A stretch of 64,000 nucleotides of DNA, from contig JAUSGI010000004.1 in the NCBI GenBank assembly GCA_030649135.1, forward strand, positions 34,089 to 98,088. Reading direction: 5' to 3'. Source of the stretch: a bacterium (GTDB lineage: Bacteria > Patescibacteriota > Minisyncoccia > Phycocordibacterales > Zambryskibacteraceae). Below, one piece after another: positions 31,134 to 59,563 of this stretch (within the stretch, counting starts at the first letter, position 1; each line of letters begins with the position of its first letter). The notes under the pieces are model-generated. The model searched no databases. It was not told the DNA's origin and saw nothing but the letters and a program-made list of their open reading frames with translations. Made by a program: the position numbers and the translations under genes.

Positions 31134-31766
31134 ATGGATGAAATAACAAATACAATTATTCCCGTTGACCCGGCTCCGACTATTCCCGTTCCTGCTAAAA
31201 GCCATGATAGCCGAGACAATAGGCCTGCCCGCCCTCACGATAGTTCGGGAGCAGGCGGGGGGGATAAAGGGAAGAGACCGGGACGTCGTTCGTCACGACG
31301 CGATACGCGCACCAAGCCGGAATTTGACCAAAAAATTGTCAGTCTTCGCCGTGTGACTCGCGTGATGGCCGGTGGCAGACGTTTCAGTTTTTCGGTTTGC
31401 TTAGTGGCAGGCAACAGAAAAGGGTCTGTGGGTGTCGGTCAGGGCAAGGCCTCGGATACGCCGCTTGCGATAGAGAAAGCTTTTCGTGATGCCAAGAAAC
31501 ATATGATTACGGTCAATACCACCAAGGAGATGTCCATTCCGCACGAGGTGGAAGCGAAATATGCTTCTTCGCGCGTTAAAATTATGCCGGCACGGGGTAA
31601 GGGGATTCTGGCCGGTAGTTCCGTGCGCACAGTACTCGAGCTTGCCGGTCTTCGGGAGATAGGCGCCAAGCTTTTCTCCAGAAGCAAAAATAGCGCCAAC
31701 AATGCCTACGTGGCCATCAAAGCGCTTAAACAACTCGAGGCTACTAAAATAAGAGACTATAAATAG
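31134..31766 (+). CDS. rpsE: 30S ribosomal protein S5 with ~55-aa Pro/Arg-rich N-terminal extension
   Basis: conserved core V..RRV.RV..GGRRFSF; extension is G+C-richer than core. Confidence 0.9.
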   Translation: MDEITNTIIPVDPAPTIPVPAKSHDSRDNRPARPHDSSGAGGGDKGKRPGRRSSRRDTRTKPEFDQKIVSLRRVTRVMAGGRRFSFSVCLVAGNRKGSVGVGQGKASDTPLAIEKAFRDAKKHMITVNTTKEMSIPHEVEAKYASSRVKIMPARGKGILAGSSVRTVLELAGLREIGAKLFSRSKNSANNAYVAIKALKQLEATKIRDYK

Positions 31767-31767
31767 T

Positions 31768-32040
31768 ATGCAATTTCATAATCTTCAAGCTCGGACGAAG
31801 AGGAAATATTCACGACAAGTGGGGCGTGGCGGTACTCGTGGCAAAACATCCGGCCGCGGCACTAAGGGTCAGAATGCCCGCGCCGGTCGGAAAAAGCGAC
31901 CGGAGTTACGCGATATTATTAAACGCATACCGAAACTACGCGGTCGTGGCAAGTCATCTCTAAAGTCCTTCCAACCAAGGCTTGATGGACGAGCCCTTAA
32001 GGAATTTTTGGCCAAAAAGAAACTTAATGTTAAAACTTAG
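31768..32040 (+). CDS. rplO: 50S ribosomal protein L15 (truncated/short, 90 aa)
   Basis: Gly/Arg-rich L15 N-terminal domain (RGGTRGKTSGRGTKGQ); C-terminal part absent; overlaps secY start. Confidence 0.65.
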   Translation: MQFHNLQARTKRKYSRQVGRGGTRGKTSGRGTKGQNARAGRKKRPELRDIIKRIPKLRGRGKSSLKSFQPRLDGRALKEFLAKKKLNVKT

Positions 32041-33298
32041 TGAGAAATTAAGACTGATTGTCCGGGATGAGTCGCTGCGAAAGCGGTTGCTTTTTGTGCT
32101 CGGCATTCTGGCCGTGACGCGCTTGTTTGCCATTGTTCCCATTCCGGGGATTGATACTTCGCGCCTCCAGAGTCTCTTCGCCGGGTCTGAATTTCTCAAC
32201 CTGTTGAATGTCTTCTCCGGTGGCGGCCTGTCGAATCTATCCATCGTTATGCTCGGAGTTGGTCCATACATCACGGCCTCGATTATCATGCAATTGCTAA
32301 CTGTCATGGTGCCGAAGTTCAAGGCGCTTAGTCAAGAAGAAGGAGAGGCGGGTCGACGTCGGTTCGCTCAATATTCTCGGCTTCTGACGGTGCCTTTGGC
32401 GGTCATCCAAGGCTATACCTTTATCAAATTACTCCAGGGGCAGAACATATTGCCGCCACTTCCTATCAATATTTTCTTGGTGGATATCCTGGTGATTGTA
32501 GCCGGGTCGATGCTCTTGATGTGGCTTGGCGAGCTTATTACGGAATTCGGGGTAGGTAATGGTGTTTCCCTCATCATTTTTGCCGGTATTATTTCACGAC
32601 TGCCTACGGTGGCTGGCCAACTGATTTTTACCTTTGATCTGGCGCAACTGCCGATTTATCTCGTGGGTCTCGCCGTAACACTTCTTGTCATCTGGGGCGT
32701 GGTTGTGGTAACGGAGGCAGAGCGGCCGATACCAATTACTTACGCCAAACAAGTCAGAGGAGGGCGCAGTTATAGCGGTCTTTCCACCTATTTGCCCTTA
32801 CGCGTCAATCAGGCCGGCGTTATCCCTATTATTTTTGCCCTCTCGATTCTGCTTTTTCCTCAAATGATTTTCCAATTTTTAACCCAATCGACTGTGGCTG
32901 TCATAGCGGATGCCGCCAGTTTTGCGCTGGTACTGCTCTCTAATAATTGGTTTTACACTTCCGCCTACTTCGTGCTGGTCTTCCTTTTCACTTACTTCTA
33001 CACCGCCGTTACTTTCGACCCTGACTCCATCGCCACCAATCTCCAGAAATCCGGCGCCTTTGTTCCCGGGGTGCGACCGGGCACGGCTACCTCCGAATAT
33101 ATCTCACGCGTGCTTATCCGACTGACATTGGTCGGGGCGCTCTTCTTGGGCGTAATCGCTATCTTGCCCCTCATTTTACGCTCCCTGACAGGCATTCAAG
33201 CCTTGGCTATCGGAGGTACCGCCCTTCTTATCGTGGTCTCGGTAGTGATTGATTTAATAAAAAAGGTGGACGCCCAGGTTTCGGCACGCGAGTACTAA
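32027..33298 (+). CDS. secY: preprotein translocase SecY
   Basis: 10-TM SecY pattern; start reset to Met at 32027 (ORF track begins 31982). Confidence 0.9.
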   Translation: MLKLSEKLRLIVRDESLRKRLLFVLGILAVTRLFAIVPIPGIDTSRLQSLFAGSEFLNLLNVFSGGGLSNLSIVMLGVGPYITASIIMQLLTVMVPKFKALSQEEGEAGRRRFAQYSRLLTVPLAVIQGYTFIKLLQGQNILPPLPINIFLVDILVIVAGSMLLMWLGELITEFGVGNGVSLIIFAGIISRLPTVAGQLIFTFDLAQLPIYLVGLAVTLLVIWGVVVVTEAERPIPITYAKQVRGGRSYSGLSTYLPLRVNQAGVIPIIFALSILLFPQMIFQFLTQSTVAVIADAASFALVLLSNNWFYTSAYFVLVFLFTYFYTAVTFDPDSIATNLQKSGAFVPGVRPGTATSEYISRVLIRLTLVGALFLGVIAILPLILRSLTGIQALAIGGTALLIVVSVVIDLIKKVDAQVSAREY

Positions 33299-38972: not shown

Positions 38973-39381
38973 TGGTGGAGATGGCGCGAATCGAACGCGC
39001 GTGCAAGAAGAAATCGGAGTGAAGTCTACGCGAAGTAGTTTGCTTCATTTGATTCAAGAAATGAGGTACAAAACAAACAAAAGCCCTCAAATCTCTATCC
39101 TCTAAGTTTTGAAATAAGGCGAGGAGATCTTATTCCGTAAGTCCCGTCTGAATTACACAGCTTCCCGGGCATGAGACACTCCCAGAGGCTACGTCGCAAG
39201 GCTCGAGTTAAACTCGAACGTAAGCGAAAGCGAAGTCGTTTCTCGTAAAATACGGAGAAACAATTGACTTCACTCGTGAGACAATTGAGTCTGCACTTAA
39301 ATTTTGAAGCAGATTAAAGAGTTACTTCAGCTCTTTCGCGCATCAATCCGATGAATCTCCCTGTCTAGGCCGATCATCCCC
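38973..39381 (-). ncRNA. ssrA: tmRNA (ssrA)
   Basis: 5' GGGGATG pairs with 3' CATCTCC-A-CCA including G3:U wobble; T-arm GCGCG-TTCGATT-CGCGC; sits directly downstream of smpB; internal tag-like region ...AACGACTTCGCTTTCGCTTACGTTCGAGTTTAA. Confidence 0.7.
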
Positions 39382-39426: not shown

Positions 39427-39885
39427 TTACAATGTTCTCTTCAGGTCTCTCTCGACGTCCCGCTTTTTAATCGCTTGGCGCTTATCGAATTTCTTTTTAC
39501 CACGGGCGATAGCGATGTCGAGCTTCAGAAACCTACCCTTATTATACACCGAAAGAGGGACAATTGTCAATCCTTTGGTTCCTTCCGCTATTCTTAACTC
39601 TTCCAGTTCGTCTCTGGAGAGCAGAAGTTTGCGAGTTCGCATGGGGTCATAATCTTTTGGCGCATTTTTGGGTTGATAGGCGGGAATACTGGCACCAATC
39701 AAAAAGGCTTCACCACCGCCAAGGCGGGGCAAGTTGCCTCGTATCGCCACGAATGTCCCCCTCAAACTGCATTTCCCGTCTCGCACGGACTTCACTTCCA
39801 TACCTAAAAGTTCCATGCCAGCCGTGAAGTGCTTGAGAATCTCGTAATCAAATAATGCCTTGGAATTATCCGCCAATCTTGCCAT
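39427..39885 (-). CDS. smpB: SsrA-binding protein SmpB
   Basis: SmpB core (NKKA.FDYEIL...G.EL.G.EVKS); start reset to MARLADN. Confidence 0.85.
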   Translation of the reverse strand: MARLADNSKALFDYEILKHFTAGMELLGMEVKSVRDGKCSLRGTFVAIRGNLPRLGGGEAFLIGASIPAYQPKNAPKDYDPMRTRKLLLSRDELEELRIAEGTKGLTIVPLSVYNKGRFLKLDIAIARGKKKFDKRQAIKKRDVERDLKRTL

Positions 39886-39939
39886 GACAGAATAATAGCA
39901 AAAAATAGTCAAATCTCATTTTTTCAGTATAATGCCACT

Positions 39940-41871
39940 ATGAAGATGCCGCTCAATAAACCCAAGAAATTTATCATCACCAAGTCGCCCAAGGGCAGCG
40001 GCACTCCGCCCGGCCGAGCTCTTTTAAAACAGGTATTTCTTGTCCTCGTTATTTTCTTATCTTTGGTTAGTATCTATTCGTTAATTTCCGATGTTTCCAA
40101 GTCGGTCGAAGAAATTCCTCTCTCCACTCTGGCTCAAGAAATAGCTCTCGGTAAAGTTTCGTCCATCACCATTGTTGGTGATAAGCTCGAGATTGTCTTT
40201 ATTGAAGGCGAAGATAAAGTTTCTAAGAAGGAAGCCGGTACCGCTCTCTCCACCACGCTTAAAAATTATAATGTTTCTCCGGAGGCGCTCTCTAAGGTGG
40301 ATATTGAAGTCAAAAATGACCAAGGGCTTTTGTATTGGTTCGTTTCGCTTGCTCCCATTATTTTGCCCATCGCTTTTATAGTTTTCTTCCTGTGGTTTCT
40401 TTCAAGACAAGTGAAAGGTGCCGGTATGCAGGCCTTTACCTTCGGTCAATCGAAGGCGCGCATGACCCATCCGGATGATAAGAGCCAGAAGGTTACTTTC
40501 AAGGATGTGGCCGGGTGCAAAGAAGCCAAGGAAGAACTTCGCGAGATAGTGGATTTCCTCAAGAATCCTAAAAAGTTTCTCGACATCGGGGCGCGTATTC
40601 CCAAAGGCATACTTCTTATGGGGGCGCCGGGTACGGGCAAGACCCTGCTTGCCCGCGCGGTCGCGGGCGAGGCGGGGGTATCATTCTTTTCCATCTCCGG
40701 TTCGGAGTTTGTAGAAATGTTTGTGGGAGTGGGCGCTTCACGTGTGCGCGACCTCTTTGACTTGGCCAAGAAGGCGGCCCCGGCTATTATTTTTGTTGAC
40801 GAAATAGATGCGGTTGGTCGAGTGCGAGGCACTGGAGTCGGGGGCGGCAACGACGAGCGCGAGCAGACTCTCAATCAGATTCTGGTCGAGCTTGACGGTT
40901 TCGAGCCCAATGAAAAAGTTATTGTCATGGCGGCCACCAATCGTCCCGACGTGCTCGACCCGGCGCTTCTACGTCCGGGGCGATTTGATAGGCGGGTAAC
41001 GCTTGATTTGCCTGACCGTAAAGACAGGGAAGAAATTCTTTTGATACACGCGCGACAAAAACCGTTTGCCGAAGATGTCAATCTGGTTTTAATCGCCGAG
41101 CGGACGCCCGGCTTTTCCGGCGCCGACCTCTATTCGCTGATGAATGAGGCGGCGATTCTTGCGGCGCGCGAAGAGCGTAGCAAAGTCTCGCAATTTGACC
41201 TCATCCGTTCAATTGAGAAGGTGATGCTCGGTCCGGAAAGGAAGAGTCACATCCTTTCCCGGAAAGAAAAAGAGTTGACCGCTTTCCACGAAGCCGGCCA
41301 CGCGGTGACTGCTTCCGTGCTTCCATATGCCGACCCGGTTCATAAAATTTCTATCATTTCCCGTGGCCGCGTGGCCGGCTATGTTTTGAAGTTGCCGTTC
41401 GAAGACCGCAAACTCCAGTCCAAAAAAGAATTTCTGGATGATATCGCGGTAGGACTCGGCGGTTACGTGGTGGAGAAAACTATTTTCAACGATTTAACCA
41501 CCGGTCCGTCAAATGACCTCCAAGTTGCTACGGCTCTGGCGCGCGATATGGTGACCAAGTACGGTATGAGCGAGAAGATGGGGCCAATCGCGCTTGAGGG
41601 TGCCGGCGGCAAACCGCTCTTTGGTCTTGGTGTCGGGGACAAAGAATATTCGGAGAAAGTGGGAGCCGAAATTGATGCCGAAGTCTACAAGATTATGAAC
41701 GAGGCGATGAAGAAGGTGGAGAAGATTATTAAAGAGCATCGAAAAGTGCTTGATACCATCGCTCGGCGACTGATTGAAGTCGAAACTATTGAACGAAAAG
41801 AGTTTGAAGAAATACTGGTGGCACACGGTATTGTGCCGAAGAAGAAGAAAGATATCGAGCACCAATCATAA
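39940..41871 (+). CDS. ftsH: ATP-dependent zinc metalloprotease FtsH
   Basis: Walker [19 protein letters not shown] zinc motif, N-terminal TM pair. Confidence 0.95.
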
Positions 41872-43684: not shown

Positions 43685-43899
43685 TGTGGTAAGAGAGCGT
43701 TGATATCGATACTCACAAACAGGACTATCGCCGCGCCGGAAAGGACGACCGAACCGAAAAGGAAGACGGCGGCAAACCTTTTCGGCTGAACACCGATGCC
43801 GAAGCGGGTGAGATGGTAGAGGATGATGAAAGTCGCACCCCAGTAGACGAGGAATACGAACGCGGCTAGAAAGTTAAAAATGATTTCTAAAGAGAGCAT
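43681..43899 (-). CDS. small membrane protein
   Basis: 2 TM helices; overlaps downstream gene start by 4 nt. Confidence 0.3.
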   Translation of the reverse strand: MLSLEIIFNFLAAFVFLVYWGATFIILYHLTRFGIGVQPKRFAAVFLFGSVVLSGAAIVLFVSIDINALLPQ

Positions 43900-43932
43900 G
43901 AATGTTGGGCTTATATTTATTTTAACATCATT

Positions 43933-45258
43933 TCAGCTGTTCTTGTGCCACCCAACAAGCCTGTCAGAAATATTTGTAATACTCCCGGCTCCCATAAAAA
44001 GTAAGACATCCCCATTAGCAACCTCATTTTTAATTGTATGGAGTACATCTTTGAAATTTCTCACAAATCTAGTGGGTTGAGAAAGGGCAATTTTTTGGGC
44101 CAGACTTTTCGCGCCTCGATTTTTTTTAGAATCCGATTCGCGGCCCAGAACCGTATAAGTTTCGAGGATTATCACTTGGTCAGCTTCGTGGAAGGCCTTA
44201 GCAAAATCCGAAAAAAGTAAGGATAGACGTTCCGCTAGATGTGGCTGGAATATAACCCAAATTTTAGCTTTAGGAAATTTTTCTCTGGCACCGGATAATG
44301 TTGCTTTAATTTCCGTCGGGTGATGTGCATAATCATCGTAAATCTTCGCTTTTCTATATATACCGCGGTACTCGAATCTGCGCCACGTTCCCATAAATCT
44401 AGAAAATACCTTGTCTCGAACCAAAACTGGAATACCTAGAAAACTTCCCAATGTATCACAAGCCATTGCGTTTGAATGATTATGTGCTCCCGGAATTTTC
44501 AAGAGGGATTTTACTTTTGCTGCTCGTGCTCCTTGCCGATCATAATATGCTATCTTTGTCTTGGTCTTTAATTGTAACGATGCAAGATTTTTGTCTTCGT
44601 GGTTCAATACCAGATACCCATTCTCCTTCACCCTGCTGATAAAAGTACGGAAGGCTTTTTTAATATTTTCGAACGTCTTATAAAACTCAAGATGCTCCCG
44701 GTCAATATTGGTAATAATAGCTGCAAATGGAGTGTAATGAAGAAACGAGCCGTGGAACTCATCTGCCTCCAAAACAAGCCATTCTGACTTTCCCTTCCGA
44801 AAATTAGAATCACCAAACGCCTTTAGTCTCGTTCCCACTATGATAGTGGGGTCAAAGCCGGCTTTCAGAAGCATCAATCCTACTAACGCTGTCGTTGTGG
44901 ACTTTCCATGAGCGCCGGCGACTGCGATTGTCTTATAATTTTTCGTCAGCTCGCCAAGCGCTTCGGCGTAGGAAAATTGTGGAATTTTGAGTGACGTTGC
45001 CTTTTTACGTTCGGAATTTTCTTTTTTAACAGCGACACTATAAATCACACGCGAAACATCAGGACTAAGCCAGTTAGCGTTATGGAGGCCAGTATGTATT
45101 ACCGCACCATGACGAATTAAATTATTGGTGATAGGTGAACGAATAGCATCGGAGCCGGTAACATGCCAACCTTCCGAAAGATACCACTGTGCCAAAGCAG
45201 AGACACCAATACCACCAATCCCGACAAAATGTACTCTCCGGTTTTTTGCTTGGCTCAT
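43933..45258 (-). CDS. murC: UDP-N-acetylmuramate--L-alanine ligase
   Basis: VHFVGIGGIGVSALA N-terminal Mur ligase motif, central GTNGKTTT-like P-loop (GAHGKSTTT); start moved to MSQAKNRR because the ORF-track N-terminus translates the adjacent tRNA. Confidence 0.85.
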   Translation of the reverse strand: MSQAKNRRVHFVGIGGIGVSALAQWYLSEGWHVTGSDAIRSPITNNLIRHGAVIHTGLHNANWLSPDVSRVIYSVAVKKENSERKKATSLKIPQFSYAEALGELTKNYKTIAVAGAHGKSTTTALVGLMLLKAGFDPTIIVGTRLKAFGDSNFRKGKSEWLVLEADEFHGSFLHYTPFAAIITNIDREHLEFYKTFENIKKAFRTFISRVKENGYLVLNHEDKNLASLQLKTKTKIAYYDRQGARAAKVKSLLKIPGAHNHSNAMACDTLGSFLGIPVLVRDKVFSRFMGTWRRFEYRGIYRKAKIYDDYAHHPTEIKATLSGAREKFPKAKIWVIFQPHLAERLSLLFSDFAKAFHEADQVIILETYTVLGRESDSKKNRGAKSLAQKIALSQPTRFVRNFKDVLHTIKNEVANGDVLLFMGAGSITNISDRLVGWHKNS

Positions 45259-45268
45259 AGATAACGTG

Positions 45269-45342
45269 TCCACCCTCTTGGATTCGAACCAAGGACCCCA
45301 GAGGTATAAGCTCTGTGCTCTAACCAGCTGAGCTAAGGGTGG
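45269..45342 (-). tRNA. tRNA-Ile(UAU) (no encoded CCA; C1:G72)
   Basis: cloverleaf: acceptor CCACCCT/AGGGTGG, D-stem GCTC/GAGC, anticodon stem CAGAG/CTCTG with loop CTTATAC (anticodon TAT), T-arm CTTGG-TTCGAAT-CCAAG. Confidence 0.7.
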
Positions 45343-45370
45343 TATCAACACAATATCTCAAAATAGCGGT

Positions 45371-47506
45371 TTATTCAAAATGAATTTTGGTGGCGGAAGA
45401 TTCGAGGCGTTCTTTCAGTAGCGGAAATTTTGAAAGTTCTGAATCATTTGCGATAAGTTTAATTGCCTCCGCGCGTGCCGCTTCAACCATCTTGATATTT
45501 TTAATCGCTTCCATGCCGAGGTCAGAGATACCCCATTGTTTTCTCCCTGCCAGTTCGCCCGCGCCTCTTTGGACCAAATCAAATTCCGCCAATTCAAAAC
45601 CATTTTTCGCCGTTACCAAAGCTTTGAGCCTTTCTCTTGATTTCTCGCCTTGGCTTTCCGTAAACACATAACAATATGCCTGGTGATTGGAGCGGATGAC
45701 TCTGCCTCGGAGTTGATGGAGTTGCGCCAAGCCGAATCGTTCCGCGCCCTCTATCACGATAAGTGAAGCATTTTCGACATTGACGCCCACCTCTACCACT
45801 GATGTCGCTACTAAGATATCAATCTTTTTATCTTCGAAATCGCGCATCACCTTTTCTTTTTCCACCGGTCGCATTTTGCTGTGGAGAATTCCAATCTCGT
45901 ATTCCGGAAAAATTTCTTTTTTAAGTCGCTTAGCTTCTTCTTTAACCGACTTGGCCTGGACGGCTAATTCTTTGGTCGGGTCGGGTTCATCTATTCTCGG
46001 GCAAATGACGTAGAGTTGCCGGCCGGCCTCCAGCTCCAATCTAATTTTTTCATACGCACCACCTCTTCTTTCTGGAGTGACGACTTCAGTAATAATTTTC
46101 TTCCGGCCGATAGGCATCTCGTCGATAAGTGACAAGTCTAGGTCGCCGTAAAGTGTCAGTGCAAGTGTGCGGGGGATGGGAGTGGCGGTCATTGATAATA
46201 AATGCGGAGTAATCTCATGTTTATTGACGAGTTTTTGCCTTTGAGCGGTGCCGAAGCGGTGTTGCTCATCCACAATCACTAGCGCGAGGTGTTTGAATTT
46301 GACACTCTTTTGAATCAGGGCATGAGTACCGATGAGAACGGCAATCTCACCGGAGGCAACCCATTTTAATAATTGCGTTCTAGAAATATCCGTCCATCCA
46401 TCCGGGTTTAACTTAGATGGAAATTTGCGACAGCCGGAACCAGTAATGAGAGCAATGTTTACAGGCAGATGCTTAAAATATTTTATGAAAGATTCGAAGT
46501 GTTGCTGGGCAAGGATTTCGGTCGGTGCCATGTAAGCCGACTGGAGGGTGCCGAAGTCCTGACCTTTCGGCTTGGAAGTGGTTATGGCATAAACTGCCGT
46601 GGCGGCGATGGCCGTTTTGCCGGAGCCCACGTCCCCCTCGAGTAGTCGGCTCATGGGATGTCCGCGGTGAAAGTCGTCAAGAATGTGCTGGATAGACCTC
46701 TTTTGTGTCGCTGTAGCCTCGAACGGAAATCTTTTTACAAATTTTTCCAGTTCCTCTTCACTTTTTTCTATGATAAAAGCGTTGCGCTCCTTGAATTCAT
46801 GACGTACTTTCTGTCTTTCTAGCTGGATGAAGAATATTTCTTCGAACGCGAAGCGTTTGCGCGCCATTTGCGCGTGCTCCTCTTTTTTCGGTGTATGGAT
46901 ATAAATGAGAGAAGTGCGGAGGTCTGGTAGACTATATTTTTTCAAAATCTCTGCCGGTATAGGGTCTACAATCTCATCAAGAATCTTGGAAACAAAGAGA
47001 TTTTGGATTTTGTGGTAAATCCAGTTGGAAGTGAGTCCTCGCGTTTCCGGATAAATAGGATAGAGAGAATGCGTTCGGCTAGTTTGAGTAAACAAATCTG
47101 GTGCGCTTTCAACTTTTGGGTTCGAGAAATATAACTGACCATTTCTCTCCGAAACTTTTCCTTCCACTCGGACATTTGAACCTTCGGCTATCATTTTGGC
47201 CAGGTAGGCTTGATGGAACCAAATAATTTTTATTTTACCCGTATCGTCTTCTACCACTCCTTCGGCCATGGGAATTTTCTTCCGGAAAGCTTTAGAAGTT
47301 TTCAGTCCGGAGATGTTGCCAAAGATGACAGCGACACTTCCTTTTGTAAGCGTCTCAATTTTTTGCACTTGTGCCGTATCGCCGTAGCGCGCGGGGACGT
47401 GATAGAGCAAGTCTTTAATACTCGTAATCCCGAGCTTCTTTAACGCTTTCTGTTGTACCGGCAAAATGCGAAACGAGCTCAAGAGAGAATCATCCAATTT
47501 CATCAT
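45371..47506 (-). CDS. recG: ATP-dependent DNA helicase RecG
   Basis: wedge/OB N-terminal domain, helicase motifs (GDVGSGKT, DEQHRFG, SATPIPRT). Confidence 0.9.
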   Translation of the reverse strand: MMKLDDSLLSSFRILPVQQKALKKLGITSIKDLLYHVPARYGDTAQVQKIETLTKGSVAVIFGNISGLKTSKAFRKKIPMAEGVVEDDTGKIKIIWFHQAYLAKMIAEGSNVRVEGKVSERNGQLYFSNPKVESAPDLFTQTSRTHSLYPIYPETRGLTSNWIYHKIQNLFVSKILDEIVDPIPAEILKKYSLPDLRTSLIYIHTPKKEEHAQMARKRFAFEEIFFIQLERQKVRHEFKERNAFIIEKSEEELEKFVKRFPFEATATQKRSIQHILDDFHRGHPMSRLLEGDVGSGKTAIAATAVYAITTSKPKGQDFGTLQSAYMAPTEILAQQHFESFIKYFKHLPVNIALITGSGCRKFPSKLNPDGWTDISRTQLLKWVASGEIAVLIGTHALIQKSVKFKHLALVIVDEQHRFGTAQRQKLVNKHEITPHLLSMTATPIPRTLALTLYGDLDLSLIDEMPIGRKKIITEVVTPERRGGAYEKIRLELEAGRQLYVICPRIDEPDPTKELAVQAKSVKEEAKRLKKEIFPEYEIGILHSKMRPVEKEKVMRDFEDKKIDILVATSVVEVGVNVENASLIVIEGAERFGLAQLHQLRGRVIRSNHQAYCYVFTESQGEKSRERLKALVTAKNGFELAEFDLVQRGAGELAGRKQWGISDLGMEAIKNIKMVEAARAEAIKLIANDSELSKFPLLKERLESSATKIHFE

Positions 47507-47584: not shown

Positions 47585-48268
47585 TCAGTACGGGAAGTAT
47601 CCCCGTGTATAGAACAAAATCCTGTCCGGCATGGCCTTGTCCGCATTCGCTAAGAGGTACTTCTCGAGGGCTCCCGCCGTATTGCAGACGGAAGAGTCTT
47701 TGATGCAGAACTCATGGACCCAGGTCATGCCACCGTCGCTGAAGGCGACATGCGTTGCCGTGCCGGGTATGTCATGCTCGAGGGCGCCACGCGCGTCGAG
47801 ACGTCCGCCAGCGGACATCTCGTCCATGTCTTTCTTGCTCATCCGCAGAGACATGTTCACCTGAAGCCAGCCATCAGGGCTGGTATAGGCGAACCAGTGG
47901 AACTTCTCGCCATTGTACCAACCGACGCCCCAGCCGACCGACCTGTCGAGAGCTCGACCTTTGTCATCGTGGGTCTCGAAGGCAAGGAACTGATACCTTA
48001 CCCAGGGGTGCAGTTGGGGTGCCAATGCCCGGAGCCGTTGGTCTTGCAGGTCCATGATAATGGTGTCGTTGCGCGCCTTCTCGGTAGGGGTGAGCTCCGG
48101 TGCCGTCTCGAGTTGAGCGGCATTTGCCGAGGCAGCATTCGCCCGGGGGGCGGCTGCCCGTATGACCGGTTCGGGCTGTGGCGACGGCGGTGTTGAGCTG
48201 ATACTTTGGTGCACTACGACTGTGAGTAGGCCTAAGCTAACAAGCAGTGCGCCACGCGACAGTGTCAT
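47585..48268 (-). CDS. G+C-rich secreted hypothetical protein (227 aa)
   Basis: signal peptide + Pro/Ala-rich linker; compositional anomaly; terminator hairpin CCCCACCCTCC-CGG-AGGGTGGGG downstream (47540..47565). Confidence 0.4.
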   Translation of the reverse strand: MTLSRGALLVSLGLLTVVVHQSISSTPPSPQPEPVIRAAAPRANAASANAAQLETAPELTPTEKARNDTIIMDLQDQRLRALAPQLHPWVRYQFLAFETHDDKGRALDRSVGWGVGWYNGEKFHWFAYTSPDGWLQVNMSLRMSKKDMDEMSAGGRLDARGALEHDIPGTATHVAFSDGGMTWVHEFCIKDSSVCNTAGALEKYLLANADKAMPDRILFYTRGYFPY

Positions 48269-51955: not shown

Positions 51956-52009
51956 TCGCCCCGCCTGATGAATCGCCCCGCGGCTCATCAGGCGGGGCGA
52001 TTTTATTTT
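51956..52009 (+). terminator. rho-independent terminator
   Basis: long GC hairpin CGCCCCGCCTGATGA...TCATCAGGCGGGGCG + TTTTATTTT. Confidence 0.55.
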
Positions 52010-52019
52010 ATAGAGAGTA

Positions 52020-52049
52020 GGGTTTGTAAGTGCCCCAAATTTGTGGGAT
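52020..52049 (+). promoter_or_regulatory. conserved TTTGT-N12-TTTGTGGGAT element, copy 1 (upstream of dinB); extended -10 TGTATAAT at 52076..52083
   Basis: three co-oriented copies (52020, 53323, 54521), each immediately 5' of a gene. Confidence 0.45.
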
Positions 52050-52089
52050 AGGGTCGGAACAGGAATATAGTCCGCTGTATAATGCTCGG

Positions 52090-53322
52090 ATGGCGCGAGA
52101 AAAGACCATTTTACATATGGATGGAGATGCCTTCTTCGTCGCCTGTGAGGTCTCGAAGAATCCCAAGCTCAAGGGTAAAGCAGTGGTGACAGGCGAGGAG
52201 CGCGGGATAGTCTCGGCCCTCTCATACGAAGCGAAGGCGCTTGGGGTAGTTAGAGGCATGCCGATATTTTCCTTGCGCAAATCGTTTCCAAGTGTCTTAG
52301 TGCTGCCGGGAGATTATGCTTGTTACGCGCGACTCTCGGGAGAAATGTTTGACATCGTGAGGAGGTATGCCGACGAGGTCGAGGAGTACAGTATCGATGA
52401 GTGTTTCGCCGATCTCTCCGGCCTAGATAAGCCGCTTAAAATGAGTTATAGAGAAATTGCGGAGCGGATAAAGAAAGAAATCGAAAGCGAACTTAGACTC
52501 TCTGTCTCTATCGGGCTCGGGCCCTCAAAGGGGCTCGCCAAGGTGGCGTCGAAGTGGCAGAAGCCCAATGGTCTTACAGTGATAGAAGCAAAGACGGCCC
52601 CAGATTTTCTCAAAAAGACTCCGATTGAGAAAATCTGGGGCATCGGCCCGCGCACAGCAGAGTTTCTAAAGAAGAAAGGAATAGGAACTGCCGGCGAGTT
52701 CGCCTCGCGTGAACTCGCCTGGGTCAGAAAGGAACTTTCCAAACCTTACGAAGTTATTTGGAGAGAGCTCAACGGTGAATACATCATGGAGTTAGACCCC
52801 TTGCCGAAGACTGTCTATTCCTCTGTCCAGAAGACAAGGACATTTCACCCGGCGACAGGGGACAAAGTCTTTCTCCTCTCCGAACTTTCTAAGCATGTGG
52901 AAGAAGCGTGCCGCAAGGCGAGGTACTACCACCTCGTACCGAAGAAGTTTTCTTTTTTCCTCAAGAGCCAGAGCTTCAAATATTTCTCTTACAATATAAA
53001 TCTTCCCTCGCCCACTAATGCTCCGGAGACGCTGGTCGCTCTAGTCCGTAAACATTTCAAAGAAGTTTGGAGAGAGGGAATACTCTTCCGTACCACTGGA
53101 GTGGTGTTGCAAGAGCTTGCTCCGAGAGCGGCAATGCAGGGAGATTTGTTCGGAGGCTCCGATAGAGCCGGTAAGTTTGAAAAGATTCATGGTCAGATCG
53201 ACGCTCTGGAAGAGAAGTTCGGCAAGTCGGTAGTCTATCTCGCCTCCACTCACCAGTCCCTGAAGCGTAAAAAGGTCGGCACCGACTCCGACGACCTCGA
53301 CCGCAACCTGCTGTTTTTGTGA
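52090..53322 (+). CDS. dinB: DNA polymerase IV (Y-family, DinB)
   Basis: HMDGDAFFVACE N-term (catalytic D..D/F), SIDE motif (YSIDECFADL), little-finger domain; start set at MAREKT. Confidence 0.85.
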   Translation: MAREKTILHMDGDAFFVACEVSKNPKLKGKAVVTGEERGIVSALSYEAKALGVVRGMPIFSLRKSFPSVLVLPGDYACYARLSGEMFDIVRRYADEVEEYSIDECFADLSGLDKPLKMSYREIAERIKKEIESELRLSVSIGLGPSKGLAKVASKWQKPNGLTVIEAKTAPDFLKKTPIEKIWGIGPRTAEFLKKKGIGTAGEFASRELAWVRKELSKPYEVIWRELNGEYIMELDPLPKTVYSSVQKTRTFHPATGDKVFLLSELSKHVEEACRKARYYHLVPKKFSFFLKSQSFKYFSYNINLPSPTNAPETLVALVRKHFKEVWREGILFRTTGVVLQELAPRAAMQGDLFGGSDRAGKFEKIHGQIDALEEKFGKSVVYLASTHQSLKRKKVGTDSDDLDRNLLFL

Positions 53323-53352
53323 GGGTTTGTTTTAAGCCAAAATTTGTGGGAT
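53323..53352 (+). promoter_or_regulatory. conserved TTTGT-N12-TTTGTGGGAT element, copy 2 (upstream of ATPase gene)
   Basis: see copy 1. Confidence 0.45.
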
Positions 53353-53372
53353 TATTTTGTGCAAGTATATTT

Positions 53373-54518
53373 ATGGATGTAGAAATAAAGAAACAACCAA
53401 AAACCAGCATTACTGAGGATATTGATTGTGTAATTAAGCTTGAGCCACTTACAATTTTTGCTGGGAATAATAATTCAGGTAAGACTCATTTGATTAACGC
53501 TATAGGGAAAAAACTGTCTGAGAATGACATAAATGTTGTGCATATCCCAAGTGAGAGGATACTTGTAGAGAATGAATTGAAGACAGGAGCAGAAAAGGAT
53601 CCATTAAGAGCGGCTCTCGGTGATTTGATTGAGTTTGCTTTTGATGCCGACAGTTCAATCTCTAGTGATGTTTCTGATATCTCAGTAATACTTCCTGCTG
53701 AATTTATACAATATGGTATTGAGAATATAGATATTTCGGTAAAGACAAACACTCTCACTAACGATGAATATAAAAAAGCTTTAAAAGATGCTCACATAAA
53801 AAAGCTTATCGATTCCATAGTTATATCTGACAAATACTGTGGAGTTGAGGACATAAGTCCATCAAATGTGGGTCAAGGAACACAAAGAATGATTGTCGTT
53901 TCTCTAATTAGATATCTACAGCGTAAAAAATTTGAGAAGGATGGTCGAACAAGTAAACCAACATATATTATTTTTGAAGAACCAGAGATATACCTTCACC
54001 CAAAAATGAAGGCAACCTTGTATGCACTAATTCAAGCCATAGCTAATGATGGAAGATTGAATACTAAAGTTATCTTAACTACCCACGACCCATACTTTAT
54101 TGATATGGGTAGAAATGCAAAAATTTATCGGGTCTTTAGGGATCCTTTGAAGAATTTTTCTACACAATTAATGGATGTACAAAAAGACGTATTACTGTAC
54201 CCATCTTCTGCAGAAATAAACTATATTGTATTTGAGCAGGTTAGCCCTACTTATTTACTTGAATTGTATGAAAGTAAAAAACAAGAAACTGAATTAAAGC
54301 TTGGAAAGAAGTTGGGAGGTCTTAAGTATTATGAATTCGATCTAGCTTTATTTAATAAAATTGGAGAACCTCAATCTTCTACTGATGATGATGGACATCC
54401 CGTTACGTTTATAACTCGGATAAGGCATGATATGGCACACCCCTCTACCTCCATATTAGATTCTTTTGAGTCTAGAGGAAAGGAAGCTATTGAAAAATTA
54501 AGAAATTACAAAGCTTAA
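53373..54518 (+). CDS. ABC/SMC-type (AAA_21/OLD-like) ATPase
   Basis: Walker A GNNNSGKT, Walker B IIFEEPEIYLHP, H-loop ILTTHDPYF; start reset to MDVEIKK (ORF track 53319 would overlap dinB stop and the repeat element). Confidence 0.7.
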   Translation: MDVEIKKQPKTSITEDIDCVIKLEPLTIFAGNNNSGKTHLINAIGKKLSENDINVVHIPSERILVENELKTGAEKDPLRAALGDLIEFAFDADSSISSDVSDISVILPAEFIQYGIENIDISVKTNTLTNDEYKKALKDAHIKKLIDSIVISDKYCGVEDISPSNVGQGTQRMIVVSLIRYLQRKKFEKDGRTSKPTYIIFEEPEIYLHPKMKATLYALIQAIANDGRLNTKVILTTHDPYFIDMGRNAKIYRVFRDPLKNFSTQLMDVQKDVLLYPSSAEINYIVFEQVSPTYLLELYESKKQETELKLGKKLGGLKYYEFDLALFNKIGEPQSSTDDDGHPVTFITRIRHDMAHPSTSILDSFESRGKEAIEKLRNYKA

Positions 54519-54520
54519 AT

Positions 54521-54550
54521 CTGTTTGTAAAACTCTAAAATTTGTGGGAT
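54521..54550 (+). promoter_or_regulatory. conserved TTTGT-N12-TTTGTGGGAT element, copy 3 (upstream of HNH gene, followed by RBS GGAGG)
   Basis: see copy 1. Confidence 0.45.
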
Positions 54551-54565
54551 ATTTGGAGGACAAAC

Positions 54566-55753
54566 ATGGAAGATGAAATAAAGCGATATTTTGAGGGCAT
54601 AGATCTTGATATTCGGAAGCAATCTCGGGGCTATTCACGCTTCATGGATCAGAAAGTTGCTCCAGATGTCCTGTCTTTTATTGCTGATTCTGTAGTCAAT
54701 TCTATGGATGGAAAGGAGCCTGGTACCACCTTTACCATTGGTGATGTATGGGAGTTTCCTTACTTTGTAAAAAATACAGAAGCTGTATTCGGGAAACCCT
54801 CTCCAGAAAATGAAACCACGGAATCTGAGTATGATAAATTTATCGCCCAGCCCTTAAAAACCCTTGCTTTTGCTAAGATTCTGGAAGAAGAAAAAGTTGG
54901 AGGGAAAAATACATATAAGGTTCTAAGGCCCGATATTTTGGAGTATATTTCTCAAAGCGAGAAAAACGCCTTTATATTTTTAGTCCTCTATATTGAAAAG
55001 GTTTTATCTGACAGTGGATTCATAAAAAACTTCGAGGAATATAGGGAAAAGGCGCAGTCAAATAAACTAAAACCAGAAGATCTTGAAATATTAAAAAAAA
55101 GATTCCAAAAATTCATTTTGGGCAATACCAATATAAATGGCGTAATAGAAATAAATAGAGTATTTCCGAAAGTTCTAAATCCTTATGCAGCTTCACATCA
55201 AATTCCAGGAATAGAAAGGGGGCACATAACTTCTGGTAGATTTATTTACCCAGATCTCATGTATAACCGAGAAAATTTTAGGGACATTGGAAAAGACAAG
55301 ACTGTAAGTAGACAAGAAGCGTTAAGAGAAATTACTCAGCAGCCAGAAGTTGTTGAATATCGAGTTCAAAAAGCAAAAAGTATTATACGGCGCCATCATT
55401 CAAGTAGTGAGGTTAAGGATAGCTTGGCAGTAGGCGAAGCGACTCAGGTTCATCATATTTTTTCAGACCATGAATTTCCTGAAATATCTGATTATATTGA
55501 AAACCTTATTTTACTAACACCTCAGCAGCACAACACAAGAGCTCATCCAAAAAATAAAACAAATACCGTTGACGCAGAGTATCAAAGGGAATGCTTGTTA
55601 TCTAAAATTGATTCGATTGAGATGTCCGTAAGTAAGCGAGACAGCCTGTATTCTAAGGAAAGATTTATACACGTTGTGAATATTGGCTATGAACTTGATC
55701 TCTCGACAAATACTAGTTTTGAAGAATTGAGAGATATTATTCGAAAGAGATAG
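54566..55753 (+). CDS. HNH endonuclease-domain protein (C-terminal HNH, ~280-aa unknown N-terminal region)
   Basis: VHHIFSDHEFPE...ENLILLTPQQHNTRAH: H-N-H spacing; start reset to MEDEIKRYF after RBS. Confidence 0.6.
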   Translation: MEDEIKRYFEGIDLDIRKQSRGYSRFMDQKVAPDVLSFIADSVVNSMDGKEPGTTFTIGDVWEFPYFVKNTEAVFGKPSPENETTESEYDKFIAQPLKTLAFAKILEEEKVGGKNTYKVLRPDILEYISQSEKNAFIFLVLYIEKVLSDSGFIKNFEEYREKAQSNKLKPEDLEILKKRFQKFILGNTNINGVIEINRVFPKVLNPYAASHQIPGIERGHITSGRFIYPDLMYNRENFRDIGKDKTVSRQEALREITQQPEVVEYRVQKAKSIIRRHHSSSEVKDSLAVGEATQVHHIFSDHEFPEISDYIENLILLTPQQHNTRAHPKNKTNTVDAEYQRECLLSKIDSIEMSVSKRDSLYSKERFIHVVNIGYELDLSTNTSFEELRDIIRKR

Positions 55754-55757
55754 TTTT

Positions 55758-58277
55758 CTAGCGATTTATGCCAAAAAAGAATACTGAATTATTGTCGATG
55801 TTTAAAGATCTGGTACCGTGATTCCTTGCTACTCGATAAAATTGGGTGAATTCGTCTGTTCCAAAATAATCAAGGTCTTTTAGAGTTATCTTAGCTCCGG
55901 GTTCTTTTAGGGTGAGGATTGCCACAGACCCATCAACAAGCGTGTTCTCTGGTAAAAATGAAGCTCTGGGAGCATAGGTCAGGTTTGGCACCAAGACGCT
56001 ATTTTCTTTATTCCAAAACTTAGAGATTGATAACCCGTCTAACGAATCAACATAAGAGTCATAATTTGGAATGTTCAGGATCTCATTTCGTCCGATATTT
56101 CTTGATTTCAATATTCTTATTTTCCCCTTGTTTTTTGTTATCTTTTTTGTAATTTGTCGATCTCTGTAAGATGTAAATATATTGAATCGAAGTTTTTTTG
56201 CAACGAAGTCAAAGAATTCATTTCTGTACACCAACCAGTAAGGAAAATCTTTCGAACAAATATAAGATTGATCTTTATAACCAATTTCGTTTTTTACATA
56301 AGACTCAACGAGAGTCCGGGCCCCTTTATTACGAGTATTGATAATCAAACTGATTGTCTCAATCTTCACACCCCTGAACCCTTTTTCTCCATAGTCTGTG
56401 ATTTTTTCAATGGCAAATGACGAAGCAAGTTCTCTTGTTTTGTTAAATTCGGGTGCTGATAGAAAACTTTTGGGAATAATAAGACCTACGGTATCTCCTT
56501 GTTGCATTGCTTTCTCGAGAAAAAAAGAAAATAGATTATTTGTTTCGGCATTATATTTATTCTTCTTATAAGTGTTTAGGAGAACTTTATTTTCAGATAT
56601 ATCTCCGAATGGTGGATTGCCAATAACGATATCGTATCTTTTAGATTGGCCAAATAAATTAGTCTCTCCATGCAATAGAAAATCTGCGTTAATTAAATTG
56701 ATCTTGATATTTTTTGGAACATCAAGTTTTTTTAGTAAAAGTTTAAGAATCTCAATTGCATTTTTGTCGATATCAACTACATCAATAGTTACCTCCTTAA
56801 CTGTTTTATATTTTTGAACAAGAAGCGGGAGAAAATTACCAGCACCGACTGATGGTTCTAATATAGAAAGTTTTTCAAACTTTGATACATCAGGAAGATC
56901 TTTTACTATAGTGAAGCAAATGTCCTGTCTGGTGTAATACGCGGCGTGCTGAAGACGTTGGGCATTTGAAAGCTCGACGATTTTAGCTAATTCGGGGTAG
57001 CTAAAATTTTGCATATTCTCTTCGAGAAAAGTCTTAATATTTTCTTCTATATTAAGCCTTTCATCTTGGATTAATTTTTTTATTTGGATTTCATTATTTT
57101 CAACATTTCTAAGCTTTGACTTGATATTTTTAGCTATACCGTTGAATATAATTGTGGGGACTGCCTCACCTAGTGATTGTCTTATATTTATCTCTTCTTT
57201 CTTGAGAATTTTCCTCTTTTCTTCATTTGACAACTTATTTAATTCATCAAGCGGAGTAGATACCCAATTAAAAGAATCTGGTACGGACATCATTCTCATT
57301 AACTCTCTAATACTAAATACCCTGTTATCTTTTGGATGAATGGTTGCTTGGCTCGCAAATATATCGTTTCGGGTATGTATACAAGGAGCAACTTTATCCC
57401 AATAACATCGTGAGTATTTATCTCCGTTCTTGTTTTCATTGTGTACAATCTTTCCGTTTATGATTTGGTGAGGTCGCTTTTTGGCATCAGTATTATCAAA
57501 CGCAGATTGTCCCTCCTTGGTATTCTCAATCCAAGAAAGCATATGCTCAGCGTACGGACGAAAATTGTGATAGATGTCCTTTTTATCAATCTCACCCATA
57601 TTTTTAAGAGATGAAAGGTTGCCTATCGTATCACGCAAGGTACCACCATCTTTCAATACTGGCATTAGATCAAGAGGTGTAACTTCTTGAATATCTTTTC
57701 GTACTCCTATAACGAGTGTTCGGGTTCTACTCGATGGATTACCATAATCTTTGAAATTGATTACTTGATAGTGGATGTTATATTTACCTCCAAGATTTAC
57801 TTCAATTGCTTCACGAATTTGTTTTTGTTTCTTATCGATGTCAGTGCAGAGTGTAGATAGAAAAGCCCTCACATTCTCAAATATAAAAACTTTCGGTCTA
57901 ATTTCATCTACAATTTTTATTGATTCAACGACAAGAGAATTTCGTTCAAGCTCATCCCTTTTTTTGTGATTGGCTACAGACATACCCTGACATGGGGGTG
58001 TTGCCAATAAAACTTCAACTTCTTTTAAACCTTGCTTTGATTTCCAGAGATCAATTTCTGAAAATATTTTTTCTTGAGTGGCTTTTTTTGTGATGTCATC
58101 AGCAATATAACCACTTGGATATAAACACTTATTATTATGTCTTTGCACATCCAAACGTCTGTTCATAAGTTCAACAGTTGCAACACAATCAAATCCTTCT
58201 TTAGAAAAACCATAGCAACCAACGCCGGCGCTACTGAATAAACTTATATATGTTAATTTTTTATTTTGGTTTTTCAT
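55758..58277 (-). CDS. bifunctional DNA methyltransferase: N-terminal C5-cytosine MTase fused to C-terminal gamma-class N6-adenine MTase (Eco57I/TaqI-like)
   Basis: C5 motifs I (LFSSAGVGCYG), IV (PPCQGMS), VI (ENV), VIII (SRTRT), X (GEAVP); then adenine-MTase motif I (LEPSVGAGNFL) and IV (NPPFGD) + TaqI-C-like TRD. Confidence 0.8.
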   Translation of the reverse strand: MKNQNKKLTYISLFSSAGVGCYGFSKEGFDCVATVELMNRRLDVQRHNNKCLYPSGYIADDITKKATQEKIFSEIDLWKSKQGLKEVEVLLATPPCQGMSVANHKKRDELERNSLVVESIKIVDEIRPKVFIFENVRAFLSTLCTDIDKKQKQIREAIEVNLGGKYNIHYQVINFKDYGNPSSRTRTLVIGVRKDIQEVTPLDLMPVLKDGGTLRDTIGNLSSLKNMGEIDKKDIYHNFRPYAEHMLSWIENTKEGQSAFDNTDAKKRPHQIINGKIVHNENKNGDKYSRCYWDKVAPCIHTRNDIFASQATIHPKDNRVFSIRELMRMMSVPDSFNWVSTPLDELNKLSNEEKRKILKKEEINIRQSLGEAVPTIIFNGIAKNIKSKLRNVENNEIQIKKLIQDERLNIEENIKTFLEENMQNFSYPELAKIVELSNAQRLQHAAYYTRQDICFTIVKDLPDVSKFEKLSILEPSVGAGNFLPLLVQKYKTVKEVTIDVVDIDKNAIEILKLLLKKLDVPKNIKINLINADFLLHGETNLFGQSKRYDIVIGNPPFGDISENKVLLNTYKKNKYNAETNNLFSFFLEKAMQQGDTVGLIIPKSFLSAPEFNKTRELASSFAIEKITDYGEKGFRGVKIETISLIINTRNKGARTLVESYVKNEIGYKDQSYICSKDFPYWLVYRNEFFDFVAKKLRFNIFTSYRDRQITKKITKNKGKIRILKSRNIGRNEILNIPNYDSYVDSLDGLSISKFWNKENSVLVPNLTYAPRASFLPENTLVDGSVAILTLKEPGAKITLKDLDYFGTDEFTQFYRVARNHGTRSLNIDNNSVFFFGINR

Positions 58278-58281
58278 GAAT

Positions 58282-58896
58282 TTATAGTGTTCTAATTATT
58301 TTTTCTACTATACCCCTAATCTCAACTTGTTTTCGGTAAAAAGGTTTGAGGTTTTTATTTGCAGGCTGTAATCTGATTTTCCCTTTTTCCTTATATATTT
58401 TTTTAAGTGTTACTTGATTGTCGTCAATGATGGCCACGGCAGTTTGTCCATTATCAGCTACGTTTTGAGATCGAATGACAACAATATCTCCATCAAAGAT
58501 TCCATCCTCAATCATACTGTCTCCTTTAACCTGTAGCGCATAGTGTTGAAAAGGTAGTTTGATATCACTTCTCGGGACGGTAATTGTTTTTTCGTTTATT
58601 TCCATTGCTTCAATAGGCTCTCCAGCTGCAATACTACCAAGCAGTGGAATTTCTACGGTCGATTTTTCTTTCATCGTAGAAATAGTTCTTGGTTGATTTT
58701 CTTCTTTTGTGAGTAAACCCTTTTTTTGTAAGTGTTTAATGTGGAAATGGGCTGTTGAGACGGAAGCAAGTTTAAAATTTTGCTGTATTTCTACTAAAGA
58801 GGGAGCATACCCATTCTTTTTTTGTGATTGCTTCACAAAATCTAGAACCATTTTTTGTTTTTTAGTAAGCATAGATATTGACATACTATTTATCAC
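58282..58896 (-). CDS. lexA: LexA repressor (HTH + S24 autopeptidase), translationally coupled to downstream MTase
   Basis: LexA DNA-binding wHTH, Ala-Gly cleavage site (SIAAGEP), catalytic Ser (GDSM) and Lys (TLKK); 4-nt gap to MTase start. Confidence 0.85.
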   Translation of the reverse strand: MINSMSISMLTKKQKMVLDFVKQSQKKNGYAPSLVEIQQNFKLASVSTAHFHIKHLQKKGLLTKEENQPRTISTMKEKSTVEIPLLGSIAAGEPIEAMEINEKTITVPRSDIKLPFQHYALQVKGDSMIEDGIFDGDIVVIRSQNVADNGQTAVAIIDDNQVTLKKIYKEKGKIRLQPANKNLKPFYRKQVEIRGIVEKIIRTL

Positions 58897-58997
58897 GGAG
58901 GTATACTTCCATTATAGAAGGAAAATAGAAGGTCTACAAGACCTACTTATCCACACCTCCTATATAAAGATCGAATTAGTAATAGTTCTAAAAAAAT

Positions 58998-59204
58998 ATG
59001 GCAAAACCTAAATACATAGCAAAGTCTGGTCAGCCTTGGGCTCCAGCTGAAGTAAAACAGTTGAAAAGCATGGGAGGCAGGGTGCCTACTGGCGTTATTG
59101 GTTTGAAACTTCAGAGACCAGTTGCAGGAGTACGGGCAAAAGCTCAAGAAATCGGCATGAGTTTGAAGCCGGTAAATAAATCGCCACGATCAAAGCTTAA
59201 ATAG
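58998..59204 (+). CDS. small basic hypothetical protein (68 aa)
   Basis: divergent from lexA; shares upstream block CTTATCCACACC.CTATAT.AAAGAT with the second lexA copy's divergent region. Confidence 0.3.
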   Translation: MAKPKYIAKSGQPWAPAEVKQLKSMGGRVPTGVIGLKLQRPVAGVRAKAQEIGMSLKPVNKSPRSKLK

Positions 59205-59322
59205 GTAAACCTGAGCAAAAGGAATGGTAGTAAGTCGCAAGAGCGGTTATCGCGGTATAATTTATTTATGTCTGAATATTACAACCAAAACAGAATAGAA
59301 TCTTGGAATTACATATCCTTGT

Positions 59323-59562: not shown

Positions 59563-59563
59563 T

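Follow-up and report, generated by a model that had tools for sequence, protein, structure and literature searches.

Bacteria are said to rely almost universally on lysidine to read the codon AUA, and tRNAs with a UAU anticodon are regarded as rare exceptions (PMC3575796; bioRxiv 10.64898/2026.02.03.703510). A 64,000-nucleotide stretch of contig JAUSGI010000004.1 (assembly GCA_030649135.1), hereafter the window, contains a tRNA gene with precisely this anticodon between recG and murC. The locus raises two questions: is the gene a working decoder of AUA, and does it stand in for the lysidine system or beside it? Our analysis leads us to regard it as very probably a functional, chromosomally fixed tRNA-Ile with a genomically encoded UAU anticodon, serving as the decoder of a frequent AUA codon in a Zambryskibacteria-like bacterium. 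We further favour, with more reserve, the view that it replaces the tRNA-Ile2(CAU)/TilS-lysidine system rather than duplicating it.

Results

Transfer RNA genes in the window were called with ARAGORN and with the Rfam RF00005 covariance model. ARAGORN reported a tRNA-Ile with anticodon tat at 45268-45342 on the minus strand. RF00005 matched 45342-45269 of the same strand over the full model with 67.4 bits (gathering score 29; E = 1.6e-12), every stem position being paired. The gene, whose extent is also supported by the family covariation described below, comprises the 74 nt at 45269..45342 (minus strand; read from 45342 to 45269, CCACCCUUAGCUCAGCUGGUUAGAGCACAGAGCUUAUACCUCUGGGGUCCUUGGUUCGAAUCCAAGAGGGUGGA), which divide into the segments CCACCCU UA GCUC AGCUGGUUA GAGC A CAGAG CUUAUAC CUCUG GGGUC CUUGG UUCGAAU CCAAG AGGGUGG A. 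The acceptor stem CCACCCU/AGGGUGG contains the pairs C1:G72 and C2:G71 and is followed by the discriminator A73; no CCA is encoded, because CACG comes directly 3' of A73. By contrast, the tmRNA and the tRNA-Ser(GCU) of the same window (60579-60668) both carry an encoded CCA. The anticodon TAT (U34 A35 U36; 45306..45308, minus strand) is evident from the sequence as well as from both programs and lies in the loop CTTATAC (C32, U33, A37, C38). The CAT anticodon expected of a lysidine-dependent tRNA-Ile2(CAU) is absent here, and all listed relatives linked to ftsH or recG likewise have TAT. Local guanine-plus-cytosine (GC) content at the tRNA equals that of its surroundings. A first-pass annotation, made from the sequence by eye, had proposed this cloverleaf with its loop and UAU anticodon, the C1:G72 pair and the lack of an encoded CCA; ARAGORN and Rfam agree with it, every position that it gave proved accurate, the acceptor features can be read directly from the acceptor end and the CACG trailer, and no predictor assigned a different anticodon or structure.

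Metagenome contigs were scanned for relatives with the pattern CCNNNNNTAGCTCAGNTGGTTAGAGCNNNNNNCTYATA, which accepted either C or T as base 34 and placed no constraint on the anticodon stem, the T arm or the 3' strand of the acceptor. The scan yielded at least 120 loci, and all family counts given below are those among the matches listed. They include at least 100 well-folded UAU tRNAs with at least 78 distinct sequences (window and its close relative L006 included), and CAU was carried by 11-17 matches. All 100 well-folded family members have UAU and none has CAU, though the pattern would have accepted either. G72, G71 and A73, none of which the pattern required, are invariant in the UAU set. 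Of the 78 distinct sequences, 66 have C38, and C4:G69 and C5:G68 predominate in the backbone of the family. Position 74 (window 45268) is C in 97 of the 100 members, 10 of which encode a full CCA. The commonest trailer in the family is A73-CAA, the lone C74 being conserved.

Base pairs were counted on a cloverleaf alignment (A3) with 21 pairs, and 500 shuffles as well as slid pairing partners served as controls. Stem cells were paired in 99.9% of cases, compared with 81.9% in the shuffles and 32-50% with slid partners. Double-change cells amounted to 276 versus 74 expected, compensatory changes occurred in 14 of the 21 pairs, and none of the 500 shuffles reached the observed covariation score. 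The anticodon and T stems, which had not been filtered, were 99.7-100% paired and displayed both-side changes in 9 of 10 pairs. This pattern of substitution indicates a maintained gene that is under strong purifying selection.

Searching genome contigs with MurC in addition recovered one close relative, L006; other relatives had 22-42% identity and no tRNA nearby. The tRNA of L006 differs from that of the window by two loop substitutions only, and flanks and gene order have diverged. On a 506-kb contig (L162; ERZ27297427 k119_619603) we found a variant with a shorter D loop which still has C1:G72, UAU and C38. Because the scan pattern would have missed this variant, the family is broader than our sample. 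In a further locus, L064, a complete tRNA-Ile(UAU) is accompanied, at a distance of about 80 nt, by a truncated copy that comprises its 5' half (5526-5563 and 5645-5682, minus strand). The truncated copy stops in the anticodon loop and resembles the partial duplications that integrating elements leave behind at tRNA genes.

Neighbouring genes of the 100 family loci listed were identified by tblastn with the window proteins. An FtsH homologue (52-90% identity) is located beside the tRNA in 68 loci and a RecG homologue (51-85% identity) near it in 59. In about 70 loci the tRNA sits between ftsH and recG, which are convergent, and its own direction varies: it lies on the same strand 3' of ftsH in 47 loci, and on the same strand 3' of recG, as in the window, in 19-21. 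The orientation is flipped even in the close relative L125, whose FtsH is 90% identical and whose tRNA is antisense to recG. Neither ftsH nor recG was found beside any CAU-bearing match among those listed. Two loci connect the slot to named genomes. RecG on L068 is 100% identical to an NCBI protein named Candidatus Zambryskibacteria RIFOXYD2_FULL_43, with the tRNA 45 nt downstream, and in L160 (GCA_002396705.1) the tRNA follows recG after about 30 nt.

In the window, ftsH (39940..41871, plus strand), identified as a partner by its tblastn conservation beside the tRNA in relatives, converges with recG (45371..47506, minus strand; 711 aa; Pfam RecG_wedge, DEAD and Helicase_C). Between the tRNA and ftsH are murC, a 72-aa open reading frame (ORF) and genes for a bPH-domain protein, a DUF378 protein and an amidase. 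Ahead of ftsH, the window has not tilS but smpB (39427-39915, minus strand), divergent from ftsH and adjacent to a tmRNA gene with encoded CCA (38973-39381, minus strand; Rfam 108.8 bits); the smpB-ftsH arrangement recurs in relatives. Directly upstream of recG is a 227-aa ORF (47585-48268, minus strand) without Pfam match and with 55-62% GC in a 46% neighbourhood. The ORF recurs on the Logan contig L001 and was possibly acquired horizontally. Exact look-ups of the window proteins MurC and FtsH gave no record, and that of RecG led only to a 3.2-kb Logan contig.

Codon usage in the window shows how often such a tRNA would be called upon. AUA accounts for 235 of 14,540 codons, that is 16.2 per 1000 and 21% of all isoleucine codons. 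Its share is about 12% of isoleucine codons in the ribosomal-protein and elongation-factor genes (S3, 4; S5, 4; EF-Tu, 1), and the codon is thus in use in the very genes in which the first-pass annotation had suggested looking for it. Across 62,609 aligned FtsH/RecG codons of the clade AUA occurs at 18.1 per 1000. In alignment columns containing AUA, the other sequences have 54% I, 16% V, 13% L and 3% M, a profile indistinguishable from that of AUU columns (53.5% I) and AUC columns (55.4% I). Judged by these alignments, AUA is a frequent codon meaning isoleucine in the clade. An efficient decoder is required. By the classification of PMC12514573, AUA usage here counts as 'high'.

The names attached to RecG relatives that share 73-85% identity are Candidatus Zambryskibacteria, Parcubacteria, Minisyncoccia and Patescibacteria, and the best placement of the host is a reduced-genome, Zambryskibacteria-like member of the Parcubacteria (Patescibacteria/Candidate Phyla Radiation, CPR). 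It had been suggested that a UAU tRNA fits an A/T-rich, reduced genome. The first half of this rationale is wrong because GC content is 34-50% in the window and about 46% around the tRNA gene, while the second half is plausible given the relatives among Parcubacteria and Zambryskibacteria. A ribosomal-protein cluster at 31134-33298 (plus strand) comprises S5 (31134-31766), a 90-aa ORF without Pfam match (31768-32040) and SecY, with no recognisable L30 or L15 seen in it. L30 is reported to be absent from CPR bacteria, and a missing L30 in the window would fit.

The tRNA gene has a bearing on the annotation of murC. On the minus strand, the recG stop at 45371 is followed by 28 nt, the tRNA, 10 nt and an ATG at 45258. 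A 472-aa ORF (43933-45351, minus strand) opens upstream of this ATG at a GTG and reads MLIPPLAQLVRAQSLYLWGPWFESKRVDTLS ahead of MSQAKNRR; its codons 4-28 are the tRNA itself, and the 31-codon extension is thus mostly tRNA read as protein. The Pfam Mur_ligase N-terminal domain covers residues 40-139 of the long ORF (profile positions 2-94) and so begins at residue 9 counted from M32, as is appropriate for a MurC (UDP-N-acetylmuramate--L-alanine ligase) with a short N-terminus. MurC of L006, which is 80% identical, aligns with the short form from the first residue onwards and has the same methionine start. In L006 the tRNA lies 554 nt upstream of murC with another ORF in between, and the same pseudo-peptide is a free-standing 50-aa ORF (MFIPPLAQLVRAQSLYLCGPWFESKRV) that is not joined to murC. 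Based on the domain start, the L006 MurC and the isolated pseudo-peptide ORF, we assign the murC start to the ATG at 45258, as the first-pass annotation had done. The true coding sequence specifies 441 aa (43933..45258, minus strand; beginning MSQAKNRRVHFVGIGGIG; Pfam Mur_ligase, Mur_ligase_M and Mur_ligase_C), and the 31 codons from the GTG at 45351 (45259..45351, minus strand), which are devoid of Pfam coverage, are an artefact of ORF calling. In practical terms, ORF callers that ignore tRNAs add 31 residues to murC, and the spurious pseudo-peptide ORF recurs in a relative.

A consensus promoter scan around the tRNA returned nothing convincing. Reading by eye, we noted a candidate weak promoter for tRNA and murC (TTGAAT, 17 nt, TATTGT; 45350..45378, minus strand) which overlaps the recG stop, matches 8 of 12 positions and is absent from the consensus-scan output. 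The block ATATT-GTGTT-AT just 5' of the tRNA is kept in L006, the remaining spacer is not. No terminator-like site was detected by a scan of 43800-45700, and there is no room for a promoter between tRNA and murC; therefore, murC is probably transcribed through the tRNA. Processing of the tRNA 3' end would leave murC with a leader of at most 10 nt that has no Shine-Dalgarno sequence.

The final part of the window (52000-64000) is a low-GC island with 34-40% GC compared with about 47%. It encodes a Y-family polymerase (52030-53322), an AAA_15 ATPase (53271-54518), an 845-aa fusion of a C5-methylase with an Eco57I-like methylase (55758-58295, minus strand), LexA (58282-58911, minus strand), the tRNA-Ser(GCU) mentioned above, an MvaI/BcnI-type endonuclease (60699-61418) and a 633-aa LexA-S24 peptidase fused to an N4/N6 DNA methylase (61415-63316, minus strand). 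A similar LexA-methylase fusion adjoins a BglII-type endonuclease in L160. Relatives of the window also have a tRNA-Ser with anticodon ACU (A34; loop UUUACUAA) beside the normal tRNA-Ser(GCU). Copies were located in L012 (4725-4814), L025 (5601-5688), L040 (10258-10345), L072 (2667-2755), L076 (5948-6035), L103 (10423-10512), L114 (783-870) and L160 (6540-6627); the window has none. As the copies differ by compensatory stem changes, tRNA-Ser(ACU) appears to be maintained. Bacterial tRNAs other than tRNA-Arg(ACG) very rarely have A34 (PMC4013482).

Discussion

We propose that the precursor of tRNA-Ile(UAU) is cut at its 5' end by RNase P and 3' after A73 by an endonuclease such as RNase Z, and that the CCA-adding enzyme would then add CCA. 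Isoleucyl-tRNA synthetase (IleRS) would charge the product with isoleucine, and U34, bare or modified, would pair with the A of AUA. Across the clade the predicted tRNA has a recognizable signature consisting of C1:G72, C2:G71, C38, usually no encoded CCA, and the slot between ftsH and recG. It is tempting to generalize that the broad Parcubacteria lineage concerned, that is Zambryskibacteria together with relatives whose RecG identity goes down to about 51%, has abandoned TilS and lysidine and reads AUA via the UAU tRNA; in our judgement, the chances that this holds for the lineage as a whole are evenly balanced. Bacterial tRNA-Ile(UAU) itself has been documented before. What appears to be new is a gene fixed with a characteristic signature and slot across a wide Parcubacteria clade, and our literature search, within the library available to it, retrieved no report tying tRNA-Ile(UAU), tilS, lysidine or the AUA codon to CPR, Patescibacteria, Parcubacteria, Saccharibacteria or Zambryskibacteria.

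A number of points weigh against our main reading of the gene. C1, C2, the D arm and C32/U33 were preset in the scan pattern, and matches were kept only with at least 6 of 7 acceptor pairs (passed by 100 of 103 UAU matches), so that the family sample is biased. A single-sequence minimum-energy fold of the window tRNA (z = -2.5) gave acceptor and T arms without the full cloverleaf. Incomplete cloverleaves are common when tRNAs are folded as single sequences, and our case for the structure rests on the covariance model and on covariation. With regard to charging, the elements recognized by E. coli IleRS are reportedly A73, A37/t6A, A38, C4:G69, U12:A23 and C29:G41, as described by Nureki and colleagues in 1994. 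Of this list, which comes from a distant organism, A73, A37, C4:G69 and U12:A23 are present in the window tRNA; position 38, however, is C rather than A, and the 29:41 pair is G:C rather than C:G. A scan for the KMSKS motif revealed no IleRS gene in the window or the fetched loci, only a partial ORF resembling valyl-tRNA synthetase in L033. Furthermore, about 98% of annotated bacterial genomes have tilS (PMC12514573), some bacteria carry both LAU (lysidine-modified) and UAU tRNAs (PMC3575796), and the visible part of the genome measures 64 kb.

The last three points speak for the most serious competitor, namely that tilS and tRNA-Ile2(CAU) have been retained and the UAU tRNA is an auxiliary, redundant decoder, which corresponds to the intermediate stage proposed by Taniguchi et al. 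We consider this the less likely arrangement. Neither tilS nor tRNA-Ile2(CAU) turned up in the window or in related loci amounting to about 0.9 Mb, which are partial sequence and not genome-wide. Specifically, the 64-kb window has no ORF with the PP-loop motif SGG.DS; in about 0.8 Mb of related loci this motif occurs only in one NadE-like, one GuaA-like and one unrelated ORF; and PF01171 is missing from the gene lists of six further loci (L158-L163). The same motif scan did pick up a Firmicute TilS in the unrelated locus L007. Wherever smpB was also detected, it lies divergently upstream of ftsH, in the position that tilS often takes in other bacteria, where tilS and ftsH are often linked. In addition, a survey with tRNAscan-SE 2.0 lists 17 bacterial genomes with UAU 'instead of' CAU (PMC8450103), and redundancy is less expected in a reduced genome.

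A quite different origin, as cargo derived from a phage or another mobile element and not as a core gene, is very unlikely. Large viral contigs in IMG/VR do have tRNA arrays that include tRNA-Ile(UAU) genes with C1:G72, some of our metagenome matches are themselves within tRNA arrays (L022, L058, L102, L112, L124), and the low-GC restriction-modification island is situated 7 kb from the window tRNA. The window tRNA, however, is a single gene among the core genes recG and murC/ftsH, its slot is kept in about 70 of the 100 listed loci, and its local GC content is that of its surroundings. The phage copies share UAU, C1:G72 and the D arm with the family, and C1:G72 is therefore not unique to the clade; unlike the family, they belong to multi-tRNA arrays of viral contigs, differ in their stems and lack FtsH or RecG neighbours. 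Because of these different stems and the missing ftsH/recG context, the window gene is not regarded as phage cargo. This class was rejected on the strength of the conserved single-gene core slot and of the differences in sequence and context of the viral look-alikes.

Still less probable is a tRNA that carries another amino acid, or an AUA codon reassigned, for example to methionine as in some mitochondria. A UAU anticodon could in principle also read AUG, but the AUA columns of FtsH and RecG (54% I, 3% M) match the AUU and AUC profile, and the combination of A73, A37, U12:A23 and C4:G69 fits an isoleucine tRNA as far as the E. coli element list goes. A decaying or non-functional copy, which the first-pass annotation had envisaged in the event that tilS and a tRNA-Ile2(CAU) are present elsewhere, has nothing in its favour beyond the unusual anticodon and C1:G72 and is excluded for practical purposes by the family covariation, whatever the tilS status, with 99.9% stem pairing and abundant compensatory changes in the 78 distinct sequences listed, invariant UAU and A73, a high Rfam score (67.4 bits) and a tRNA that remains nearly identical where its flanks diverge.

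If the lineage has indeed abandoned TilS and lysidine altogether, reading AUA directly with a UAU anticodon would be normal in a considerable part of bacterial diversity, at moderate GC content, and no rare case. It would imply a lineage-specific way of keeping U34 off AUG, be it via IleRS, the ribosome or a modification of U34. Discrimination between AUA and AUG is a classic weak point of the genetic code. The 78 distinct, covarying UAU tRNAs among the matches listed, from an AUA-heavy, uncultivated clade with reduced genomes, represent a naturally occurring resource for comparative study of how misreading of AUG is avoided by an anticodon with U34, and of the IleRS features that accompany it.

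Comparison with known systems

The canonical tRNA-Ile2(CAU), which depends on TilS, resembles the family described here in that it reads AUA, has C4:G69 and C5:G68, and shares the common D arm UAGCUCAG...GGUUAGAGC. It differs in its anticodon, the family having UAU in all 100 listed members, and no TilS was seen in the sequence scanned. C4:G69 and C5:G68 are TilS determinants in E. coli. That most family members have kept both pairs is consistent with an origin from a gene of the Ile2(CAU) type in which C34 changed to U. The backbone presumably resembles that of E. coli ileX; a BLAST search against E. coli genomes returned one match only, a gene annotated as tRNA-Arg in one strain (78%). The viral contigs from IMG/VR (L130-L157, up to 448 kb) carry tRNA arrays including tRNA-Ile(UAU) or CAU tRNAs with C1:G72 and the same D arm, and the CAU copy in L143 closely resembles E. 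coli ileX.

Genomically encoded UAU tRNAs have been recorded in 19 species in tRNADB-CE (PMC4013482) and in 17 genomes by tRNAscan-SE 2.0, including Bifidobacterium, Mycoplasma and Neorickettsia (PMC8450103). The description of such genes in the first-pass annotation as a rare alternative seen in a few lineages matches these surveys and PMC3575796, but within the present lineage the gene is the rule. Bifidobacterium and Neorickettsia, which like the bacteria studied here have a UAU tRNA (tRNA-Ile3(UAU)), are without tilS and tRNA-Ile2(CAU) (PMC8450103; PMC3575796); use of a eukaryote-type IleRS is a feature of theirs. In the archaea Nanoarchaeum equitans and Korarchaeum cryptofilum, tRNA-Ile3(UAU) replaces the modified-C (agmatidine) system in a small genome (PMC8450103), a parallel drawn by description rather than sequence and across a domain boundary. 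That a UAU tRNA-Ile can sustain AUA decoding without TilS is illustrated by a suppressor of a tilS deletion in B. subtilis with a G34-to-U change in tRNA-Ile1 (Fabret 2011; Koehrer 2014, PMC3919564), which, however, is a mutant of the major GAU isoacceptor obtained in the laboratory and not a conserved natural gene.

The tRNA-Ile2(UAU) of Mycoplasma mobile likewise is a bacterial tRNA with a genomic UAU anticodon that reads AUA as isoleucine in place of a lysidine-modified CAU tRNA (PMC3575796). Taniguchi et al. (2013) proposed that it arose when C34 of a tRNA-Ile2(CAU) gene was changed to T (PMC3575796). U34 of this tRNA is unmodified, R865 of IleRS, an arginine at the position of W905 in the E. 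coli enzyme, is critical, and the ribosome limits misreading of AUG (PMC3575796). M. mobile is a single species of an AT-rich Mollicute genus whose relatives keep tilS. By contrast, the gene described here is fixed across many Parcubacteria lineages, in a setting of about 46% GC and frequent AUA, and has the C1:G72/C2:G71 pairs and C38.

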